Part shown: positions 2,051 through 9,507 of the stretch, piece by piece
How positions within the stretch are numbered: the stretch's first letter is position 1
Layout of the letters: the number at the start of each line of letters is the position of its first letter
Sequence record: MH992122.1
Length of the DNA: 64,000 nt
Strand: one strand, 5' to 3'
Source of the DNA: Escherichia phage OLB35
Translations under genes and position numbers: made by a program
The notes under the pieces: model-generated
Told to the model about the DNA's origin: nothing
Databases searched by the model: none
What the model saw: only the letters and a program-made list of their open reading frames with translations

Positions 2051-2276
2051 CTCGGTCCCATGATTTGGCCATTAATTCGGACATAAATTCTTCAATGCGC
2101 GTTTCTTTAGATGGACTTTCACTATTAGAGACCGCAAGTTTGTAATCTGCAATAGGACAGAACATATCAAGGTCCATATTAAGATCGTCTTTGATTTTTT
2201 CTTCTGACACATCTTTATCATATGTGTACAGATAACTATCACATGATTCTGATTTAATGTAAATTGCTATACTCAT
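2040..2276 (-). CDS. hypothetical protein
   Basis: ORF with likely ATG at 2276 (MSIAIYIK); overlaps neighbours by a few nt. Confidence 0.4.
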   Translation of the reverse strand: MSIAIYIKSESCDSYLYTYDKDVSEEKIKDDLNMDLDMFCPIADYKLAVSNSESPSKETRIEEFMSELMAKSWDRDDE

Positions 2277-2764
2277 CTCAAATTCCTGCATTCGGTAATA
2301 AAACGTTCAACTTCATTATTCTTGGCCTTTATCTTGTCTTTACGTTCCTGTAAACTACTTTTAACAAGATTAATAATGATGCCTATAGTACCTCCACCAA
2401 TAATACCACCAATAATACTTACGATAGTAGATGCTAATAAGATAGCGATAATATCTAATATAGCAAAGGCACTTACTTTAGTACTAAAAAACCACACCGA
2501 TGGTACAAATATAATCCATCCTGTTATCCATTGGCACTTATTGAAAAACTTTTCAAGCTCAGCTTGAGTTGTTCGTATTACTTCATCGATAGGTTGATAT
2601 CCATTAATGTATCTGTTCACGATAATACCTGCTGGTTTGTCGATTTTAAATGCTTGACATTGGTGTTTCACTAAATAAGATGGACATCCTGTCCAATCTA
2701 CTGAATAGTATGAAATACCTTCGTTGCCATCGTCTATATTAGACCAATATGTTTTGTTAATCAT
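2273..2764 (-). CDS. hypothetical membrane protein
   Basis: 163 aa, long hydrophobic stretch (GWIIFVPSVWFF...IIGGIIGGGTIGIII); C-terminus FITECR is part of the junction motif. Confidence 0.5.
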   Translation of the reverse strand: MINKTYWSNIDDGNEGISYYSVDWTGCPSYLVKHQCQAFKIDKPAGIIVNRYINGYQPIDEVIRTTQAELEKFFNKCQWITGWIIFVPSVWFFSTKVSAFAILDIIAILLASTIVSIIGGIIGGGTIGIIINLVKSSLQERKDKIKAKNNEVERFITECRNLR

Positions 2765-3450
2765 TACCAGCCTTCCATAGGGAATTCCAGATAAACTTGG
2801 GCATTGACACGAATTTCATTGGTGATCTTTTTAACTCGGTCTGTATTACGAGATACACGTCCGAACCAACGCCATCCATTACTAATTGCACGAGAACCAG
2901 TGTGCCATGTTTGCCAATCGAACTGAAGAAGAGTACGGTCTGGAGCTTCCCATTTCTCTAGTTCGCCTTTTTCAATTTTTTCGAGGACTTCTTTGTGCCA
3001 TTGGCGATAGATAAGTTCGCCATCAGGAATCTGACTGAACTCTGCAGTTCCTGTTGCAAAATGAGTAGGACACACGTCAGCGTTAACAAGACCAAGAATA
3101 TGTTCAGACAAATAGCGAGGATTGTCATAGTCAGGTTGTCCTGCAGTAATAAAATGTTGACCAACCGGAATATCCCGGCGCGGTACATCATCATGGTGAT
3201 AACCTGGAATAGCAGGATACCAACCAGGCATCAGCATATGAACCCGAGAATCAAATACAACATGTTGATTAGTCCAATCAATTGGGAGATTGACAATAAA
3301 GCTACGAGTAATAGGACCGCCGTTATCCTAAGCAAATTTTAAACTACAGTTAAAGAACATAGGCTCGTTCTTGATTTGATCATTAGAAATACCGCCGGCA
3401 AAACCACCTACTGCACGAGCTTGACTATTAAACACTTTAGAACTATTCAT
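2764..3450 (-). pseudogene. hypothetical protein interrupted by in-frame amber codon
   Basis: ATG at 3450 with SD GAGGA; in-frame TAG at 3328-3330 after 40 codons; same frame continues to 2764 (the 157-aa ORF of the track). Confidence 0.4.
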
Positions 3451-3451
3451 A

Positions 3452-3757
3452 TTATTTTCCTCGACATTCTTTAATGAAATTTTCTAGATTGGTAGATTCA
3501 ATAGCTTTTTTACGAGCTTCTGCGTGTTCTTCTTCAGACAATTTACATTTATAATTAACCCAGACGTTATGGTCAAAACTAGTCGTGGCATATAATAACA
3601 AAGCCCCGACGAATAATAAAAATGGTGATAAGAATACAAAACCAGGAACACCATCCATATCGTAAGCCTTTTGTAATACTGCAACAGAAAGAGCTACGTA
3701 AAAAGGTGATACAAATATAGTTAAAAGACCAATTCGGTTGGTTTCGCCTAATTTCAT
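3452..3757 (-). CDS. hypothetical membrane protein
   Basis: 101 aa, two hydrophobic segments; C-terminus NFIKECRGK is part of the junction motif. Confidence 0.5.
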   Translation of the reverse strand: MKLGETNRIGLLTIFVSPFYVALSVAVLQKAYDMDGVPGFVFLSPFLLFVGALLLYATTSFDHNVWVNYKCKLSEEEHAEARKKAIESTNLENFIKECRGK

Positions 3758-3777
3758 AATATTCTCCTCATGTTTTA

Positions 3778-3815
3778 ATAGGACTACTATAACATAGTCC
3801 TATAATTGTGTAAAC
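3778..3815 (-). promoter_or_regulatory. early promoter in a stem-loop (PeSL-like)
   Basis: minus strand GTTTAC (3810-3815), 18-nt spacer, TATAGT (3786-3791); inverted repeat ATAGGACT/AGTCCTAT flanks the -10. Confidence 0.5.
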
Positions 3816-3827
3816 AGTTTTGCGAAA

Positions 3828-4784
3828 TTATTTGAAAGGTTTTACCATATGGAAATTTTGTTTAAAACGTTTTACATAATCGTCATGTCCTAAGCTTTGG
3901 TACATACTTACAACTTTGCTGTAGTTTTCCCAAGCGTATTCACGGAACCAGCCTGACGTGATTGAAGTACAGACTTTTTCTAATGCCATCATAAAACTAT
4001 CACGTGGATGGATTTCAAAGTTATTAGGAATCTGAGAACGTTCTAACGCTAGTACACATGATTCTTCGTATACGCCGGCTAATTTGACCATTTCTGGTAA
4101 TGATTCGAACTTCTCGCGTGAGGTCATGACTTCAGAACCATCTTTCATATAAAATGTATACGCTGGACGGTCTGTTAGTGCAATGGCTTCGTGAATAGTA
4201 TCATGGTCATACGTATAGATGTCATCTTTAAAGAATGCGCTTTTAGAAGTGTCAAGAACTGGGTGAGCATAGTTCAAGGTTTCTTTCTGGCGTTTCAGCA
4301 TAATTTCAGTAAGTTCATCGTTCAGTGTAACACCTTTACCACGAAGATACTGAATATGGTTCATAGTCTTTAAAAAGAATGGATTATTTTTCTTGAAACG
4401 ATGAGACATCTTAATTGCAAGACACATCTCAGGAGTTGCCCAGTAAAACCCGTTCAAACGGTCTTTAGTCAAATTTTTCTTGGCGTATTTTAAAAGGTCA
4501 TAAGAAGACGTGAAATCTTCAGGAGTGAGTTCACCGACTAATTCACGGACATTAGTGATTGCCGGAACAATATATGCTTCAAAATGAGTTTCGCGTCCAT
4601 TATGGAAGCATTTGAAAACTTGGACATCAGGGTTATCTTGGTGAACATATACACCCATCATTTGATTTTTGAATACATTCCAAGAACCTTGGTCCGCAAT
4701 AAAGTCCCAATCACTATTTTTGATAGCGCTAGAATCAATAAGGCCGTGATAGTGAAGTGCACGAGAACCAATAACTAACATCAT
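3828..4784 (-). CDS. hypothetical protein, possible minimal nucleotidyltransferase fold
   Basis: 318 aa; N-terminal GS...SDWD resembles the GS-x(n)-D-x-D NTase motif (spacing longer than typical); no confident homolog recalled. Confidence 0.55.
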   Translation of the reverse strand: MMLVIGSRALHYHGLIDSSAIKNSDWDFIADQGSWNVFKNQMMGVYVHQDNPDVQVFKCFHNGRETHFEAYIVPAITNVRELVGELTPEDFTSSYDLLKYAKKNLTKDRLNGFYWATPEMCLAIKMSHRFKKNNPFFLKTMNHIQYLRGKGVTLNDELTEIMLKRQKETLNYAHPVLDTSKSAFFKDDIYTYDHDTIHEAIALTDRPAYTFYMKDGSEVMTSREKFESLPEMVKLAGVYEESCVLALERSQIPNNFEIHPRDSFMMALEKVCTSITSGWFREYAWENYSKVVSMYQSLGHDDYVKRFKQNFHMVKPFK

Positions 4785-4812
4785 AATATTTTCCTCGGAT
4801 TAATTCATTAAC

Positions 4813-5064
4813 TTAAATTTCGCGACATGCGATATTATATTCATCCCAGAGGTCGTCATGTGAAGCCTCTACCAATGGAACGATTGTGCCGTTTATGTCT
4901 TCATTATAAGGGCAAATTGTACAGTGCGCATCTTCGAATCGGATGCCTTTGTGTTCAGATTTTTTATAACGCATATCGAATATCTTTGCAAACTTTTCAC
5001 GAGTAATAGTTTTAGCAACTACTTCTGTTCCTATACTTTCGTAATAAACCATTGTTGTCTCCAT
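4813..5064 (-). CDS. hypothetical protein
   Basis: 83 aa ORF downstream of the PeSL-like promoter at 5074-5110. Confidence 0.45.
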   Translation of the reverse strand: METTMVYYESIGTEVVAKTITREKFAKIFDMRYKKSEHKGIRFEDAHCTICPYNEDINGTIVPLVEASHDDLWDEYNIACREI

Positions 5065-5073
5065 TTAATTTGA

Positions 5074-5110
5074 TAGGACTACTATAACATAGCCCTATCT
5101 TGTTGTAAAC
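5074..5110 (-). promoter_or_regulatory. early promoter in a stem-loop (PeSL-like)
   Basis: minus strand GTTTAC (5105-5110), 18-nt spacer, TATAGT (5081-5086); GATAGGACT...AGCCCTATC inverted repeat. Confidence 0.5.
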
Positions 5111-5114
5111 TGTT

Positions 5115-5312
5115 TTAGCAAGAATAACTAGATGATACCCAGCCTTGAACAGTAATACTATTATTTGATAACGAGATTGCGTCCTGGAGATTCAGACCTG
5201 CATTATCTTCAATCCACAATGTAACTTCTTCACGCTCTTCGGTTGCAATCTGGAACAGGTTTTCTAGAGCAGCTACTGCCGTACGTACAGCACAATCTAA
5301 TTCACGAGACAT
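5115..5312 (-). CDS. small protein, paralog family member P3 (C-terminal GWVSSSYSC)
   Basis: 65 aa; conserved C-terminal tail shared with the ORFs at 5322-5595 and 5605-5910. Confidence 0.5.
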   Translation of the reverse strand: MSRELDCAVRTAVAALENLFQIATEEREEVTLWIEDNAGLNLQDAISLSNNSITVQGWVSSSYSC

Positions 5313-5321
5313 ATGATTTCC

Positions 5322-5595
5322 TTAACAAGTGTGAGAAGATGCAACCCAACCACCATCTTCAAGGCTCAAGTTGTAGTCGTATTGGTAAACGTCGGCCCAT
5401 TCAGCATAACCGTTTTTTTGTACAACGTTCAAGATCGGCTTTAAGATGTCCTGGTGAATGATAGGTTCCACCCATGCCATAAGCTGGATACAAGTTGAAT
5501 GTTGTGTTTTGTTTATTAGCAATTTCTTTGGCAGCCTCAATAGCTGCATAGATTTTTGCTACAGCTTCAGCCAGTTCGGTTTGTTCTTTAGACAT
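5322..5595 (-). pseudogene. paralog P2 with frameshift at a homopolymer
   Basis: N-terminal frame (5401-5595) and C-terminal frame (5322-5549, ending GGWVASSHTC) differ by one nt; the switch maps to a 7-nt homopolymer at plus 5413-5419. Confidence 0.45.
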
Positions 5596-5604
5596 AATGA
5601 TTCC

Positions 5605-5910
5605 TTAGCACAACGCAGAAGACGAAACCCAAGCACCTTCAGTAATAACGTAACCATTACCTTCACGCTTAACATCGCCACCATTATTTTCAATTTCATC
5701 TTTCATCCACTGGGATACGATTTCACCCTTAGGATAATAAGTACGACCGCTACCATAATCACCTACAGAAAATGATACTGCATATTGGTCTGCGATCTTT
5801 GTTGCTTCTTCTTCGATACGTTCAGCTTGATTCAGAAGTTTATAAATTGCATCTGAAGCGGATTTGGCATCATTAAACTCTGGTACTTTAATTTCAATAA
5901 TCTTACTCAT
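5605..5910 (-). CDS. small protein, paralog family member P1 (C-terminal AWVSSSALC)
   Basis: 101 aa; shares MSK start, YGxGxTY and NGY motifs and the C-terminal tail with P2. Confidence 0.55.
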   Translation of the reverse strand: MSKIIEIKVPEFNDAKSASDAIYKLLNQAERIEEEATKIADQYAVSFSVGDYGSGRTYYPKGEIVSQWMKDEIENNGGDVKREGNGYVITEGAWVSSSALC

Positions 5911-5942
5911 TTTCTACATTCCTTAATAAAGTTTTCGATTGT

Positions 5943-6332
5943 TTCATTTTCACGTTTAGCTAGGAGTTCATTATAACTAATCATTTGAGAAGCGTAAACA
6001 GCATAAATTCAGTTAAGGCTTTTGCATCTTATTTCCTTAACGAATTCCATAGCTTCTTCATATTCATACTTTTTAACAGCTTCGATTGTTTCATTTTCAC
6101 GTTTAGCTAGGAGTTCATTATAACTAATCATTTGAGAAGCGTAAACAACGCCGTCAATAAGAAATCCAACTAATCCAAAGGCAAATCCCATGCCAATACT
6201 CATAATAAAAATTAGAATGTTCTCACCAAGAGAAGGCCAGCATAAATTCAGTTAAGGCTTTTGCATCTTATTTCCTTAACGAATTCCATAGCTTCTTCAT
6301 ATTCATACTTTTTAACAGCTTCATCATACTGA
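5943..6332. repeat. nested direct repeats A (about 66 bp) and B (about 83 bp) in order A-B-A-(93 bp)-B
   Basis: A at 5943-6009 and 6090-6156; B at 6009-6091 and 6250-6332, near identical by eye. Confidence 0.8.
6009..6203 (-). CDS. small membrane protein (chimeric: unique N-term + repeat A + repeat B)
   Basis: 64 aa; C-terminal 22 aa identical to the C-terminus of the ORF at 6248-6640. Confidence 0.4.
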   Translation of the reverse strand: MSIGMGFAFGLVGFLIDGVVYASQMISYNELLAKRENETIEAVKKYEYEEAMEFVKEIRCKSLN

Positions 6333-6640
6333 GCTTGGGCTTTTGCGCACTGAACTTTCCATTCTCTTAATCGGGCTCTGTGATGACGTCCTTGGTACCA
6401 ATATCCCATCCAGTTAATAGGCATTAATAAAAACGGTACAATAAGTGGTGCGACGAACATTAATGAAAATGCTGCATCAGACGATATAACTTCACTAGAA
6501 TCTAAAACGGCTCCTATAATCATAAAGATTAAAAATGCTAAAGCTAAAATAGGGCCAAATAGTACTTCATTTGGGATTAATTTACGCTTGTATTCATACG
6601 CCCAGGGCTTACTTGGCATGTATAGGGTTGGCTTTGACAT
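6248..6640 (-). CDS. hypothetical membrane protein
   Basis: about 130 aa from ATG at 6640 (the track start at 6670 is TTG); two hydrophobic segments; C-terminus encoded by repeat B. Confidence 0.45.
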   Translation of the reverse strand: MSKPTLYMPSKPWAYEYKRKLIPNEVLFGPILALAFLIFMIIGAVLDSSEVISSDAAFSLMFVAPLIVPFLLMPINWMGYWYQGRHHRARLREWKVQCAKAQAQYDEAVKKYEYEEAMEFVKEIRCKSLN

Positions 6641-7211
6641 ATTCTCTACATTCCATAATAAATTGCTCAAGGATTAAATTGTTAGTGAAATTAGGACTAA
6701 CAACCATAGTTTCATAAAGCGCATCAATAGCACTTAAAGCATCAACTCTCTTAAGCAAAGGCTTGCCTTCATACATAGTTTCAGAATCGACGATTAACGT
6801 AAAGTAGTATTTTTTATTATCGACTAGAACTTCTGTATCGATATAAAACATATTAGTCCTCAGAAGCTTATCTCTAAAACCATAATAATCTTCAGAGCGT
6901 TCGCTGATATATTCCCATTCAGTGTTTAAACAACAAACAGACCACGTAGGAGCAACGAAATCAGTGAATCTAATATCATGGTCTGCAACTAGTTTAGCAA
7001 TAGCTCCGATATCATGAATCATAATACCTGGGGCTAATAAAGATTTTCTGCTATGGCTAGCCGTTTTCTCGGTGGTCTCATAAGAAGACGACCAGTACCA
7101 TTTACGTCCGGTTGCAACATATCGTAATGAATCAACTAAAGACGTAGGTGGATTTACCTTATCTCGGAACTCTTCGAACATTGAGTCAATATCATTATTT
7201 TGGTTTCGCAT
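6609..7211 (-). CDS. hypothetical protein
   Basis: about 200 aa from ATG at 7211 (MRNQNN) with SD AAGGAG; C-terminal region FIMECR is part of the junction motif. Confidence 0.5.
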   Translation of the reverse strand: MRNQNNDIDSMFEEFRDKVNPPTSLVDSLRYVATGRKWYWSSSYETTEKTASHSRKSLLAPGIMIHDIGAIAKLVADHDIRFTDFVAPTWSVCCLNTEWEYISERSEDYYGFRDKLLRTNMFYIDTEVLVDNKKYYFTLIVDSETMYEGKPLLKRVDALSAIDALYETMVVSPNFTNNLILEQFIMECREYVKANPIHAK

Positions 7212-9042: not shown

Positions 9043-9507
9043 TTATTTGATTTGTTTAGCAGACCAAATGCGGTCTTTAATAAGTTTTTGGATATCTTCA
9101 ACATACTCAAGGCTATGAGCGTGAGGATTATCTTTGAAGCTATGTGCTCGTGCCAGTTTCTGGCCTTCAGTTTTGATTACCAAAAGTTCTTTAAGAATTG
9201 CTTCATACTTAGAAATAATTCCTTTGGCGATATTTTTTTCTTGAGCTGCTTTAGGGCCCGCTTTTGGTGCTGGTGCTTTACCTGTAGCTTTCTGGAACAA
9301 TTCACCTGATGCAGCTAGGCTTTTAAAAACTCGGCTAACAGTATTAGCATTAGTAAAACCTTCGGCTTTAAAATCTCTAATAAAACGGAAACGTTCTTCA
9401 TCAGAGGCGTCTTTGTAAGAATATTTACCTGCTTGAATTGCTGCAATCGCAGCGGCTTTTACATCTGAACTAGATTGTTCAGTCAAAAATTCTGCATATG
9501 ATTTCAT
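9043..9507 (-). CDS. internal-protein-like protein with CTS-like leader
   Basis: starts MKSYAEFLTE (compare T4 IP leader MKTYQEFIAE, L-x-E cleavage site); 154 aa, Lys/Ala-rich. Confidence 0.5.
   Translation of the reverse strand: MKSYAEFLTEQSSSDVKAAAIAAIQAGKYSYKDASDEERFRFIRDFKAEGFTNANTVSRVFKSLAASGELFQKATGKAPAPKAGPKAAQEKNIAKGIISKYEAILKELLVIKTEGQKLARAHSFKDNPHAHSLEYVEDIQKLIKDRIWSAKQIK

Follow-up and report, generated by a model that had tools for sequence, protein, structure and literature searches.

Why does the same short sequence recur where one gene ends and the next begins in a gene cluster of a T4-type phage, and is it kept for the peptide it encodes or for some property of the RNA or DNA? 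The window (the whole 64-kb stretch of DNA analysed here) derives from a T4-type phage related to RB69 (Mosigvirus). Four exact matches to the degenerate pattern TTYATTNNNGAATGYMGR occur in it, always on the minus strand, where none is expected by chance (100 dinucleotide-preserving shuffles). The four strict copies recovered by this pattern search sit in frame near the 3' ends of e.2, ORF133c, e.3 and e.5; these genes, together with e.4 and its degenerate copy, are as follows.

6609..7211, minus strand: gene e.5, 200 aa, soluble with no TM segment, phrog_2607, ending in LILEQFIMECREYVKANPIHAK before the stop
6645..6662, minus strand: strict motif copy TTTATTATGGAATGTAGA, read as FIMECR in e.5
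6248..6640, minus strand: gene e.4, 130 aa, about two TM segments and a charged tail, phrog_2604, ending in EAMEFVKEIRCKSLN before the stop
6266..6283, minus strand: degenerate motif copy TTCGTTAAGGAAATAAGA, read as FVKEIR in e.4
5907..5990, minus strand: remnant of the e.3 3' end, 27 codons counted from the preceding stop, ending in NELLAKRENETIENFIKECRK before the stop
5913..5930, minus strand: strict motif copy TTTATTAAGGAATGTAGA, read as FIKECR, within the e.3 remnant rather than at an intact gene end
3452..3757, minus strand: ORF133c (RB69ORF133c-like), 101 aa, two TM segments and a charged tail, ending in NLENFIKECRGK before the stop
3461..3478, minus strand: strict motif copy TTCATTAAAGAATGTCGA, read as FIKECR in ORF133c
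2273..2764, minus strand: gene e.2, 163 aa, phrog_2203, ending in EVERFITECRNLR before the stop
2285..2302, minus strand: strict motif copy TTTATTACCGAATGCAGG, read as FITECR in e.2

In the frame of the upstream ORF, the window's strict copies read F-I-x-E-C-R and lie one to 11 codons ahead of the stop; strict and degenerate copies taken together are all in frame, 0–11 residues from the C-terminus. A preliminary description of this DNA had given FITECR, FIKECR, FIKECR and FIMECR as the C-termini themselves. No protein ends at the Arg, however, and the real C-termini are FITECRNLR (e.2), FIKECRGK (ORF133c), FIKECRK (e.3 remnant) and FIMECREYVKANPIHAK (e.5). The same description was right that four copies are present, but the third of its four junctions belongs to the e.3 remnant, its 20-nt consensus accommodates no more than three of the copies, and its count missed two degenerate copies (6266-6283 and 6027-6044), both within the ending FVKEIRCKSLN that forms the end of the e.4 tail.

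The full-genome search that it had called for places the motif in this one cluster of the RB69-type genome. No other ORF of at least 40 codons in the whole genome carries the strict peptide, and the motif is absent from the approximately 100 other gene junctions of the window as well as from the remaining genome. When up to three mismatches were allowed, only two sites matched the best copy. Unrelated viral contigs contained 119 chance occurrences, only two of which were in frame near a C-terminus.

The repeat is thus confined to small early proteins of one gene cluster, and among them conservation is at the level of the protein; we consider it probable that the repeat encodes a short peptide at the C-terminus, kept by purifying selection at that level. 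The consensus, [LIMV]-[ENK]-x-F-[IV]-x-[ED]-C-[RK], is found 0–11 residues from the C-terminus. Among 18 non-redundant copies, information content is highest at the second codon position (1.78 bits), followed by the first (1.49) and the third (1.00), and the x codon is nearly unconstrained (0.69 bits). Synonymous variation is seen for Arg (AGA/AGG/CGA/CGT), Cys (TGT/TGC) and Phe (TTT/TTC), as well as for Ile, while amino-acid replacements are mostly conservative (I/V, E/D, R/K). All four positions at which TTCATTAAAGAATGTCGA differs from the copy at 5913-5930 are synonymous. Third-position identity between copies is 0.55–0.63, against 0.51 expected from phage codon usage alone. Since synonymous positions match about as codon usage predicts and the x codon is free, conservation is of the type expected for a peptide, which contradicts the earlier assertion that it operates on nucleotides.

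Comparison with relatives, which had been named as a potential means of refutation, instead extended the motif to orthologous gene ends in five genera of Tevenvirinae: Tequatrovirus, Mosigvirus, Dhakavirus, Gaprivervirus and, in degenerate form, Kanagawavirus. Identity is 56–78% in the motif window versus 25–38% in the rest of the protein, T4 e.3 being an exception. Tails of paralogs within one genome (0.72) are no more alike than those of orthologs (0.73). The Cys position is variable: e.4 has I, S or V there, and one CIP9 tail has V. Junction DNA at e.5/e.4 and e.4/e.3 is unchanged between T4 and RB69, as each of these stretches is read in two frames, and constraint at the nucleotide level may apply at these two junctions.

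The repetition itself is the one observation in favour of a structured RNA, or of a DNA or RNA site to which a protein binds (a promoter, a terminator or a processing site, for example). Structure prediction over the junctions, which had likewise been proposed, yielded neither a stable nor a common fold (z-scores from -0.64 to +1.22, with folds differing), and Rfam returned no matches at E up to 1. None of the four junctions has a promoter-like or terminator-like site on the minus strand; the sole overlap is a weak 9/12 promoter-like match on the plus strand at 3461-3490. Three-nucleotide periodicity and the free x codon, moreover, are the pattern of a coding sequence. A structured RNA or protein-bound site of this kind is essentially refuted, and we regard it as exceedingly improbable.

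Why, then, is a C-terminal peptide found at gene junctions at all? It is found there only because it is C-terminal and because the stop and start codons of these tightly packed genes overlap, an arrangement in which the last codons of the upstream gene necessarily hold the Shine-Dalgarno (SD) sequence of the next. A junction repeat in a compact phage genome can therefore be a C-terminal peptide where a regulatory element is the tempting reading. The ATG of the next gene overlaps the stop or follows it by 1 nt, except from e.5 to e.4, where it lies upstream of the stop; junctions comprise ATGA overlaps (e.2/130c, e.3/139c), a 1-nt spacer or a 32-nt overlap, with AAGGAA, AGGAA or GAGGAAAA as SD-like sequences. 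The e.4 start codon (6640-6638) is situated 4 nt past the e.5 motif, within the e.5 reading frame. In the degenerate copy of e.4, AAGGAA is the SD and is followed by AGATGC, which carries the e.3 start codon in RB69 and T4. In e.2 the Arg codon, AGG, opens an SD (AGGAA) that serves the ORF130c-like gene, and the ATG of that gene (2276-2274) overlaps the stop of e.2. At the ORF133c junction, the SD GAGGAAAA comes after the motif and the next ATG is at 3450-3448.

These arrangements could be read as a module for translation initiation or coupling, in which an A/U-rich enhancer and an SD serve the next cistron and the peptide is a passive consequence. Every copy is indeed followed by a start codon in one of the positions described, all of the junctions are internal to polycistronic early units, several have AAGGAA or AGGAA within the motif, and SD spacing is an ideal 6–7 nt at e.4 to e.3, at e.2 to 130c and at T4 e.3 to e.2. 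However, the SD is inside the motif only sometimes, formed by the x-E codons (AAGGAA) or by the Arg codon (AGGAA), and elsewhere lies downstream, so that the ribosome-binding site ascribed to the motif holds for some junctions and not for others. Across 18 copies, between 17 and 40 nt separate the Phe codon from the likely start of the next gene; this range leaves out values of 11 nt, which reflect the ATG inside GAATGC of e.2 junctions, and no fixed geometry emerges. The most conserved codons, those of Phe, Ile and Cys, contain nothing SD-like; synonymous positions drift as codon usage predicts; and approximately 100 other junctions of the window, along with the rest of the genome, lack the motif. 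We therefore judge an initiation module to be very unlikely. The purine-rich K-E and R codons of the peptide suit an SD role well, as a dual use and not as the cause of conservation. Overlapping stop and start codons (ATGA) with translational coupling occur in T4 polycistronic early mRNAs. The e.2/130c and e.3/139c junctions resemble these in their ATGA and in having the SD in upstream coding sequence, but such junctions are generic and have no common peptide, and the motif-to-start distance here is not fixed.

Gene e.3 of this phage is a rearranged chimera, which accounts for the position of the third strict copy in a remnant. Two further features define it.

6009..6203, minus strand: chimeric e.3, N-terminally truncated, 64 aa
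5934..6147, minus strand: rearranged block

The chimera combines the TM region and part of the tail of e.3 with a duplicate of the e.4 tail (FVKEIRCKSLN), whose degenerate motif lies at 6027-6044, and it shows complete identity with a 60-aa protein of Escherichia phage OLB35. Within the rearranged block, a 67-nt segment occurs twice (5934-6000 and 6081-6147), flanking a duplicate (5999-6083) of the 85 nt at the e.4 3' end, the original of which lies at 6238-6322; the block stands in place of approximately 145 nt of mid-e.3 present in RB69. Its junctions are microhomologies of 1–3 nt outside the motif. The remnant still overlaps the ORF139c-like gene (5605-5910) through an ATGA.

Among related phages, for which breakpoint mapping had also been suggested beforehand, two kinds of whole-gene indel have their crossover inside repeated junction DNA. 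Gene e.2 is deleted in L125 and ZJUN4, with the crossover in TGCAGGAAA, and its body is missing from approximately 51 of 499 Tequatrovirus records (~10%). Compared with TH54, Dhakavirus JS10 lacks an e.4-like gene, and here the crossover falls in GAGGTTCnnAATGG. In both deletions, the two direct repeats are identical over 9–13 nt at the crossover. The joint AAAGAGGTTCAAAATG recurs in Dhakavirus and Gaprivervirus ahead of three different downstream genes.

Observations of this kind could mean that the tail and initiation region are maintained as a joint for homologous recombination, a protein-coding counterpart of the PeSL (promoter-early stem-loop) cassettes, with which early genes are added, dropped or swapped while the upstream C-terminus and downstream start are always regenerated. 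The precision of the two indels, the frequency of the e.2-less form, the recurring joint and a hyperplastic region that also holds PeSL-like promoter stem-loops are all consistent with this. Several points argue against it. Firstly, selection for evolvability is not needed, as short direct repeats delete in any recombination-proficient phage; because only indels ending at gene borders are likely to be viable, those observed are moreover a biased sample. Secondly, conservation follows the peptide, with synonymous drift and a free x codon, while a joint would favour nucleotide identity and copies within a genome are only 72% identical over 18 nt. Thirdly, the e.3 rearrangement of this phage was joined outside the motif. 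Maintenance as a recombination joint is thus unlikely. Since the DNA of the tails amounts to short direct repeats, homologous recombination between them removes an entire gene from time to time, in frame, and leaves a hybrid tail with the initiation region of the next gene intact. Most simply, the junction crossovers are a by-product of the repeats and not the reason for conservation of the motif, so that the earlier suggestion of a recombination site or cassette boundary finds some support in the e.2 and e.4 crossovers but probably not as a cause.

PeSL cassettes of T4-type phages, and the shuffling mediated by them, are documented (Arbiol et al. 2010, PMC2839356; Comeau et al. 2014, PMC4122927). 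Both PeSLs and the FIxECR repeats are short conserved repeats at gene borders in hyperplastic regions of T4-type genomes, and in both, recombination between copies removes (or, for PeSLs, exchanges) intervening genes. PeSLs, however, do not code for protein and combine a sigma-70-type early promoter (-35, -10) with an overlapping stem-loop, whereas the FIxECR junctions are coding, lie inside polycistronic units, have neither a minus-strand promoter nor a stem-loop, are kept as peptide rather than DNA and recombine in frame; what they have in common with PeSLs is that indel end points fall in the repeat. PeSL-like elements do occur in the same cluster (5058-5116 and 3763-3821, including 5109-5081 and 3814-3786), though not at the four junctions. 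Deletions between short direct repeats have also been described for T4 rII. The losses of e.2 and e.4, with their crossovers in 9–13 nt of identity, resemble deletion between short direct repeats (Albertini et al. 1982, as cited in PMC4122927), but these repeats are homologous coding tails rather than random repeats, and the product is an in-frame hybrid with the downstream start intact. In the hyperplastic regions of T4-type phages, whole genes are lost by in-frame crossover at coding repeats, and not at non-coding PeSLs alone.

The carriers had been described as otherwise unrelated, which requires qualification. Genes e.2, e.3, e.4 and ORF133c have a common architecture of roughly two TM segments and a charged tail (preceded in e.2 by a soluble N-terminal domain), and e.5 is soluble. 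ORF133c was assigned to phrog_9798, with a weak match to phrog_2203, the e.2 family. With tails included, hhalign aligned e.3 over its full length with e.4 (86% probability) and with ORF133c (92%); with tails removed, no profile pair was significant, the best being e.3 versus e.4 at 10.7% probability. Genes e.3 and e.4 also have a common M-x-K-P-x-L start, and the DNA at the e.5/e.4 junction resembles that at e.4/e.3 across a frame shift. The tails are most likely related through tandem duplication with offset end points, a descent that we infer since no homology of the carriers could be demonstrated beyond the tail.

With regard to the role of the peptide, neither the peptide nor its carriers matched Pfam, NCBIfam or PADLOC, and we found no family, fold or literature information on its function. 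The AlphaFold model of e.5 was of low confidence (mean pLDDT 59.5) and gave no match in a fold search, and the amphipathicity of the motif segment is barely above that of shuffled controls. The carriers are early proteins whose genes lie between e.6 and nudE in T4-type phages. Judged from their sequences, e.2, e.3, e.4 and ORF133c are small proteins of the inner membrane, each with about two TM segments and a tail of 25–50 residues; as this tail starts with positive charge, the positive-inside rule suggests that it is cytoplasmic, with the motif at its end. There, the peptide may form a terminal helix docking the carriers to a common partner or to one another. The signature, apparently undescribed, ties together five to six uncharacterised early families (e.2–e.5 and ORF133c) of T4, RB69 and relatives, and offers a handle on a common partner or function.

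A doubtful but conceivable extension is that tail and initiation region form a portable in-phase cassette, acting both as a common address tag and as a means of gaining, losing or swapping whole genes. It would provide a C-terminal tag for one shared partner or membrane assembly, would permit gene turnover by homologous recombination without broken reading frames or start sites, and would be a protein-coding analogue of PeSL-mediated modular shuffling. Early proteins that would count as tagged number at least six: e.2, e.3, e.4, e.5 with e.5-like, ORF133c and a 99-aa CIP9 protein.

The T4 capsid targeting sequence is an N-terminal peptide of approximately 10 residues, MKTYQEFIAE, on otherwise unrelated polymorphic internal proteins. 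It provides a precedent, from the same group of phages, for a short terminal peptide common to unrelated proteins, and bears a superficial F-[IL]-x-E resemblance to the motif. It is, however, N-terminal, cleaved and found on head proteins, whereas the motif is C-terminal and found on early, mostly membrane, proteins, and we treat a resemblance this short as coincidental. The window itself encodes proteins with similar starts, one being MKSYAEFLTE.

The repeated junction sequence is real, and the feature behind it is a C-terminal peptide signature (F-I-x-E-C-R, FIxECR, where x varies) of an uncharacterised cluster of early proteins in T4-type phages. The signature is previously undescribed and conceptually ordinary; a literature search on the peptide strings and on e.2-e.6 found nothing relevant. 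The degenerate pattern TTYATTNNNGAATGYMGR matched the window four times, with 0 matches expected from shuffles, and a six-frame peptide scan read the sites as follows:

2285-2302, minus strand, FITECR
3461-3478, minus strand, FIKECR
5913-5930, minus strand, FIKECR
6645-6662, minus strand, FIMECR

The same scan recovered a degenerate peptide, FVKEIRCKSLN-stop, twice (6266-6283 and 6027-6044), and all copies, strict and degenerate, lie 1-11 codons ahead of a stop. The carriers are e.2, ORF133c, e.3, and e.5, with the degenerate version belonging to e.4. The preliminary description thus located a genuine repeat at four sites, while the 20-nt consensus it wrote down fits only three of them. Over the whole of an RB69-type genome, taken as the window together with the remainder of RB69, the strict peptide is confined to this cluster. 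As background, a sequence collection was scanned with a specific-codon pattern, giving mostly chance matches; in these, the peptide stood in frame near a C-terminus in only 2 of 119 occurrences (one codon version, unrelated viral contigs). A search with a 45-residue tail profile, its sensitivity limited to 45 candidates, recovered only fragments of the known carrier families and therefore offered no evidence for further carriers.

RB69-like phages (Mosigvirus, Tevenvirinae) match the region at 95-98% identity by megablast. Following the RB69 annotation, the minus-strand order is e.6, e.5, e.4, e.3, ORF139c-ORF132c, e.2, ORF130c, nudE, e. The motif junctions are enclosed by polycistronic early units, whose boundaries are marked by these elements:

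7924-7896, promoter
7252-7235, terminator after e.6
5109-5081, promoter
3814-3786, promoter

Whether peptide or nucleotides are conserved was assessed on 18 non-redundant copies, which represent five gene families in four lineages, namely T4 and other Tequatroviruses, RB69-like phages, the Dhakaviruses JS10 and Bp7, and the Gaprivervirus TH54. The amino-acid pattern is kept while the codons vary: Arg is written AGA, AGG, CGA, or CGT; Cys TGT or TGC; Phe TTT or TTC; Ile/Val ATT, ATC, GTT, or GTG; and Glu/Asp GAA, GAG, or GAT. Information content is 1.49, 1.78, and 1.00 bits at codon positions 1, 2, and 3, respectively, with the x codon at 0.69 bits, and the pattern continues upstream, where position -3 is hydrophobic and position -2 polar. 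Third-position identity is 0.55 between unrelated copies and 0.62-0.63 between copies from the same genome or gene; phage codon usage alone predicts 0.51. Within the window, the copies at 3461-3478 and 5913-5930 differ at four positions, all synonymous. The proposal of an RNA or DNA element conserved as nucleotides was therefore mistaken in its main point, as codons vary and third positions lie near the codon-usage expectation. When orthologs are compared between genera, identity is usually 56-78% over the 9-residue motif window and 25-38% over the remainder of the protein, T4 e.3 (FVIDCR) being the exception to this excess. The tails of Kanagawavirus CIP9, a more distant phage, have drifted and read FVDQCR, FIKNVR, FIKQCR, and FVKGCR; a 99-aa gene from another family bears one of these. 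Gene conversion between tails is unsupported: nucleotide identity is 72% between paralog tails within a genome and 73% between ortholog tails, so it can have been no major force.

A translation-initiation module, also suggested for the repeat, is contradicted by the arrangement of the junctions. Between them, the Phe codon stands anywhere from 17 to 40 nt ahead of the next gene's likely start codon, and the position of the Shine-Dalgarno (SD) sequence varies as well: within the x-E codons (AAGGAA), within the Arg codon (AGGAA), or past the motif (GAGGAAAA). Nor do the junctions share a fold: 101-nt windows at five of them gave z-scores of -0.64 to +1.22 with unrelated structures, and an Rfam scan returned no match. 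Three further candidates were rejected. Firstly, an out-of-frame ATG-TAG or ATG-TAA start-stop within GAATGTAGA or GAATGTAAA occurs in only 4 of the 18 copies and is therefore no general feature of the motif. Secondly, inspection found no MotA box, late promoter, or RegB (GGAG) site in the motif, save for GGAG in one Gaprivervirus copy. Thirdly, a likeness to the capsid targeting sequence of T4 or to a prohead-protease site (I-x-E) extends over too few residues to be assessed, and the carriers are membrane proteins of the early class.

The suggestion of a recombination site or cassette boundary fared better, and gains partial support from two gene losses with crossovers in junction DNA. Two Tequatroviruses, IMG/VR L125 and phage HZ_ZJUN4, are missing e.2, and their e.3 tail (FVIDCRKLK-stop) is directly joined to nudE; the crossover lies within the 9 nt TGCAGGAAA, common to the e.3 and e.2 tails. 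The e.2 body is present in 448 of 499 Tequatrovirus records having e.3, leaving some 10% without it. Similarly, an e.4-like gene of TH54 is absent from JS10, with a crossover in GAGGTTCnnAATGG, a stretch that supplies the following gene with its SD and start. In TH54, JS10, and Bp7, this same joint leads into three different genes. These events could be taken to mean that selection keeps the tails as a recombination cassette, a reading we consider improbable. In our reading, recombination instead follows incidentally from the repetition of coding DNA, coupled with selection for indels which end at gene borders. The nearest known parallel is shuffling mediated by promoter-early stem-loop (PeSL) cassettes (PMC2839356, PMC4122927), which are non-coding promoter stem-loops, whereas the junction repeats here are coding tails. 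The window also contains a PeSL-like element in two 59-nt copies, 80% identical (3763-3821 and 5058-5116), upstream of the ORF133c-like and ORF135c-like genes; each combines an early promoter (TTTACA-17-TATAGT with an upstream TG) and an overlapping palindrome, ATAGGACTACTATAACATAGTCCTAT.

The e.3 gene of OLB35 itself carries a private rearrangement (5934-6322, minus strand). Relative to RB69, approximately 145 nt of its middle are replaced by second copies of two pieces, joined at microhomologies of 1-3 nt:

5999-6083 and 6238-6322, minus strand, 85-nt e.4 3' end, duplicated
5934-6000 and 6081-6147, minus strand, 67-nt e.3 3' piece, duplicated

The e.3 start frame reaches a stop after four codons, and the third motif copy therefore lies in a 27-codon remnant. 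No collinear match to this arrangement was found among INPHARED records. Identity between the chimeric product and a 60-aa Escherichia phage OLB35 protein establishes the rearrangement as a real feature of a deposited genome. A promoter-like site, TTTACG-17-TATAAT (10/12 matches; 5970-5998 and 6117-6145, minus strand), starts the duplicated 67-nt segment and resembles the GTTTAC -35 type of T4 early promoter; a promoter internal to e.3, hence present twice in OLB35, is possible.

Together with e.3, two other genes of the OLB35 cluster are disrupted, ORF137c and ORF132c. The RB69 ORF137c protein has 90 aa; here the ORF137c-like gene (5322-5595, minus strand) is split into overlapping ORFs of 64 and 75 aa by an apparent frameshift in the A-run caaaaaaaacgg. 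In the ORF132c-like gene, an amber TAG at 3328-3330 (minus strand), which is TGG in Shf125875 and TTT in RB69, leaves a 40-aa and a 157-aa ORF.

In e.2, e.3, e.4, and ORF133c alike, roughly two hydrophobic segments precede a tail of 25-50 residues, net positive at its start and bearing the motif at its end. Neither e.5 nor the Dhakavirus/Gaprivervirus e.5-like protein has a transmembrane segment, and the tail is the only part these two share. Profile-profile comparison with tails included aligned e.3 over its full length with e.4 (86%) and ORF133c (92%); with tails removed, no carrier pair was significant. In T4, the e.5/e.4 and e.4/e.3 junction DNAs both hold TTTGTTAAGGAAT and ATG[TC][CA]AAAGCC, across a 5-nt frame-shifting difference, and e.3 and e.4 share an M-x-K-P-x-L start. 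We infer that the tails may have arisen through tandem duplications whose end points were offset; such an origin would fit the junction likeness and the common e.3/e.4 start and would also explain why the soluble e.5 has the tail. For the carriers, nothing beyond sub-threshold noise came from Pfam, NCBIfam, or PADLOC. For e.5, the homolog search was shallow (4 clusters), the AlphaFold model is of low confidence (mean pLDDT 59.5), with the tail predicted as a terminal helix, and Foldseek found no PDB match at E up to 0.001; we accordingly draw no functional inference for it.

The T4 reference e.2 is frameshifted (NC_000866, 67,035-67,652), and an unannotated 51-aa ORF in that record bears the e.2 tail, NNFITECRKLK-stop. 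The annotated T4 nudE start (MQEIKM...) is an out-of-frame ATG within the E-C-R codons, GAATGCAGG; the second ATG, 7 nt past AGGAAA, looks like the better start.

Tandem small genes, 3-6 per genome, have a second C-terminal tail in common, G-[WF]-W-[VI]-S-S-S-x-x-C-stop, and form another array with a conserved Cys-ending C-terminus. This tail is also found in RB69 ORF138c/137c/136c, JS10, Bp7, and CIP9, and TAAGGAAAnnnnATG follows each such gene. In the window these are:

5605-5910, minus strand, second-tail gene
5322-5595, minus strand, second-tail gene
5115-5312, minus strand, second-tail gene

The ORF134c-like protein (318 aa; 3828-4784, minus strand), conserved in RB69, JS10, Bp7, and CIP9, has strong Pfam matches to DUF7277 and DUF7275 (E = 3e-27 and 8e-79, respectively). 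Finally, two ORFs, 818-1114 and 9043-9507 (minus strand), the latter beginning MKSYAEFLTE, have starts which resemble the T4 capsid targeting sequence (MKTYQEFIAE) of internal head proteins.
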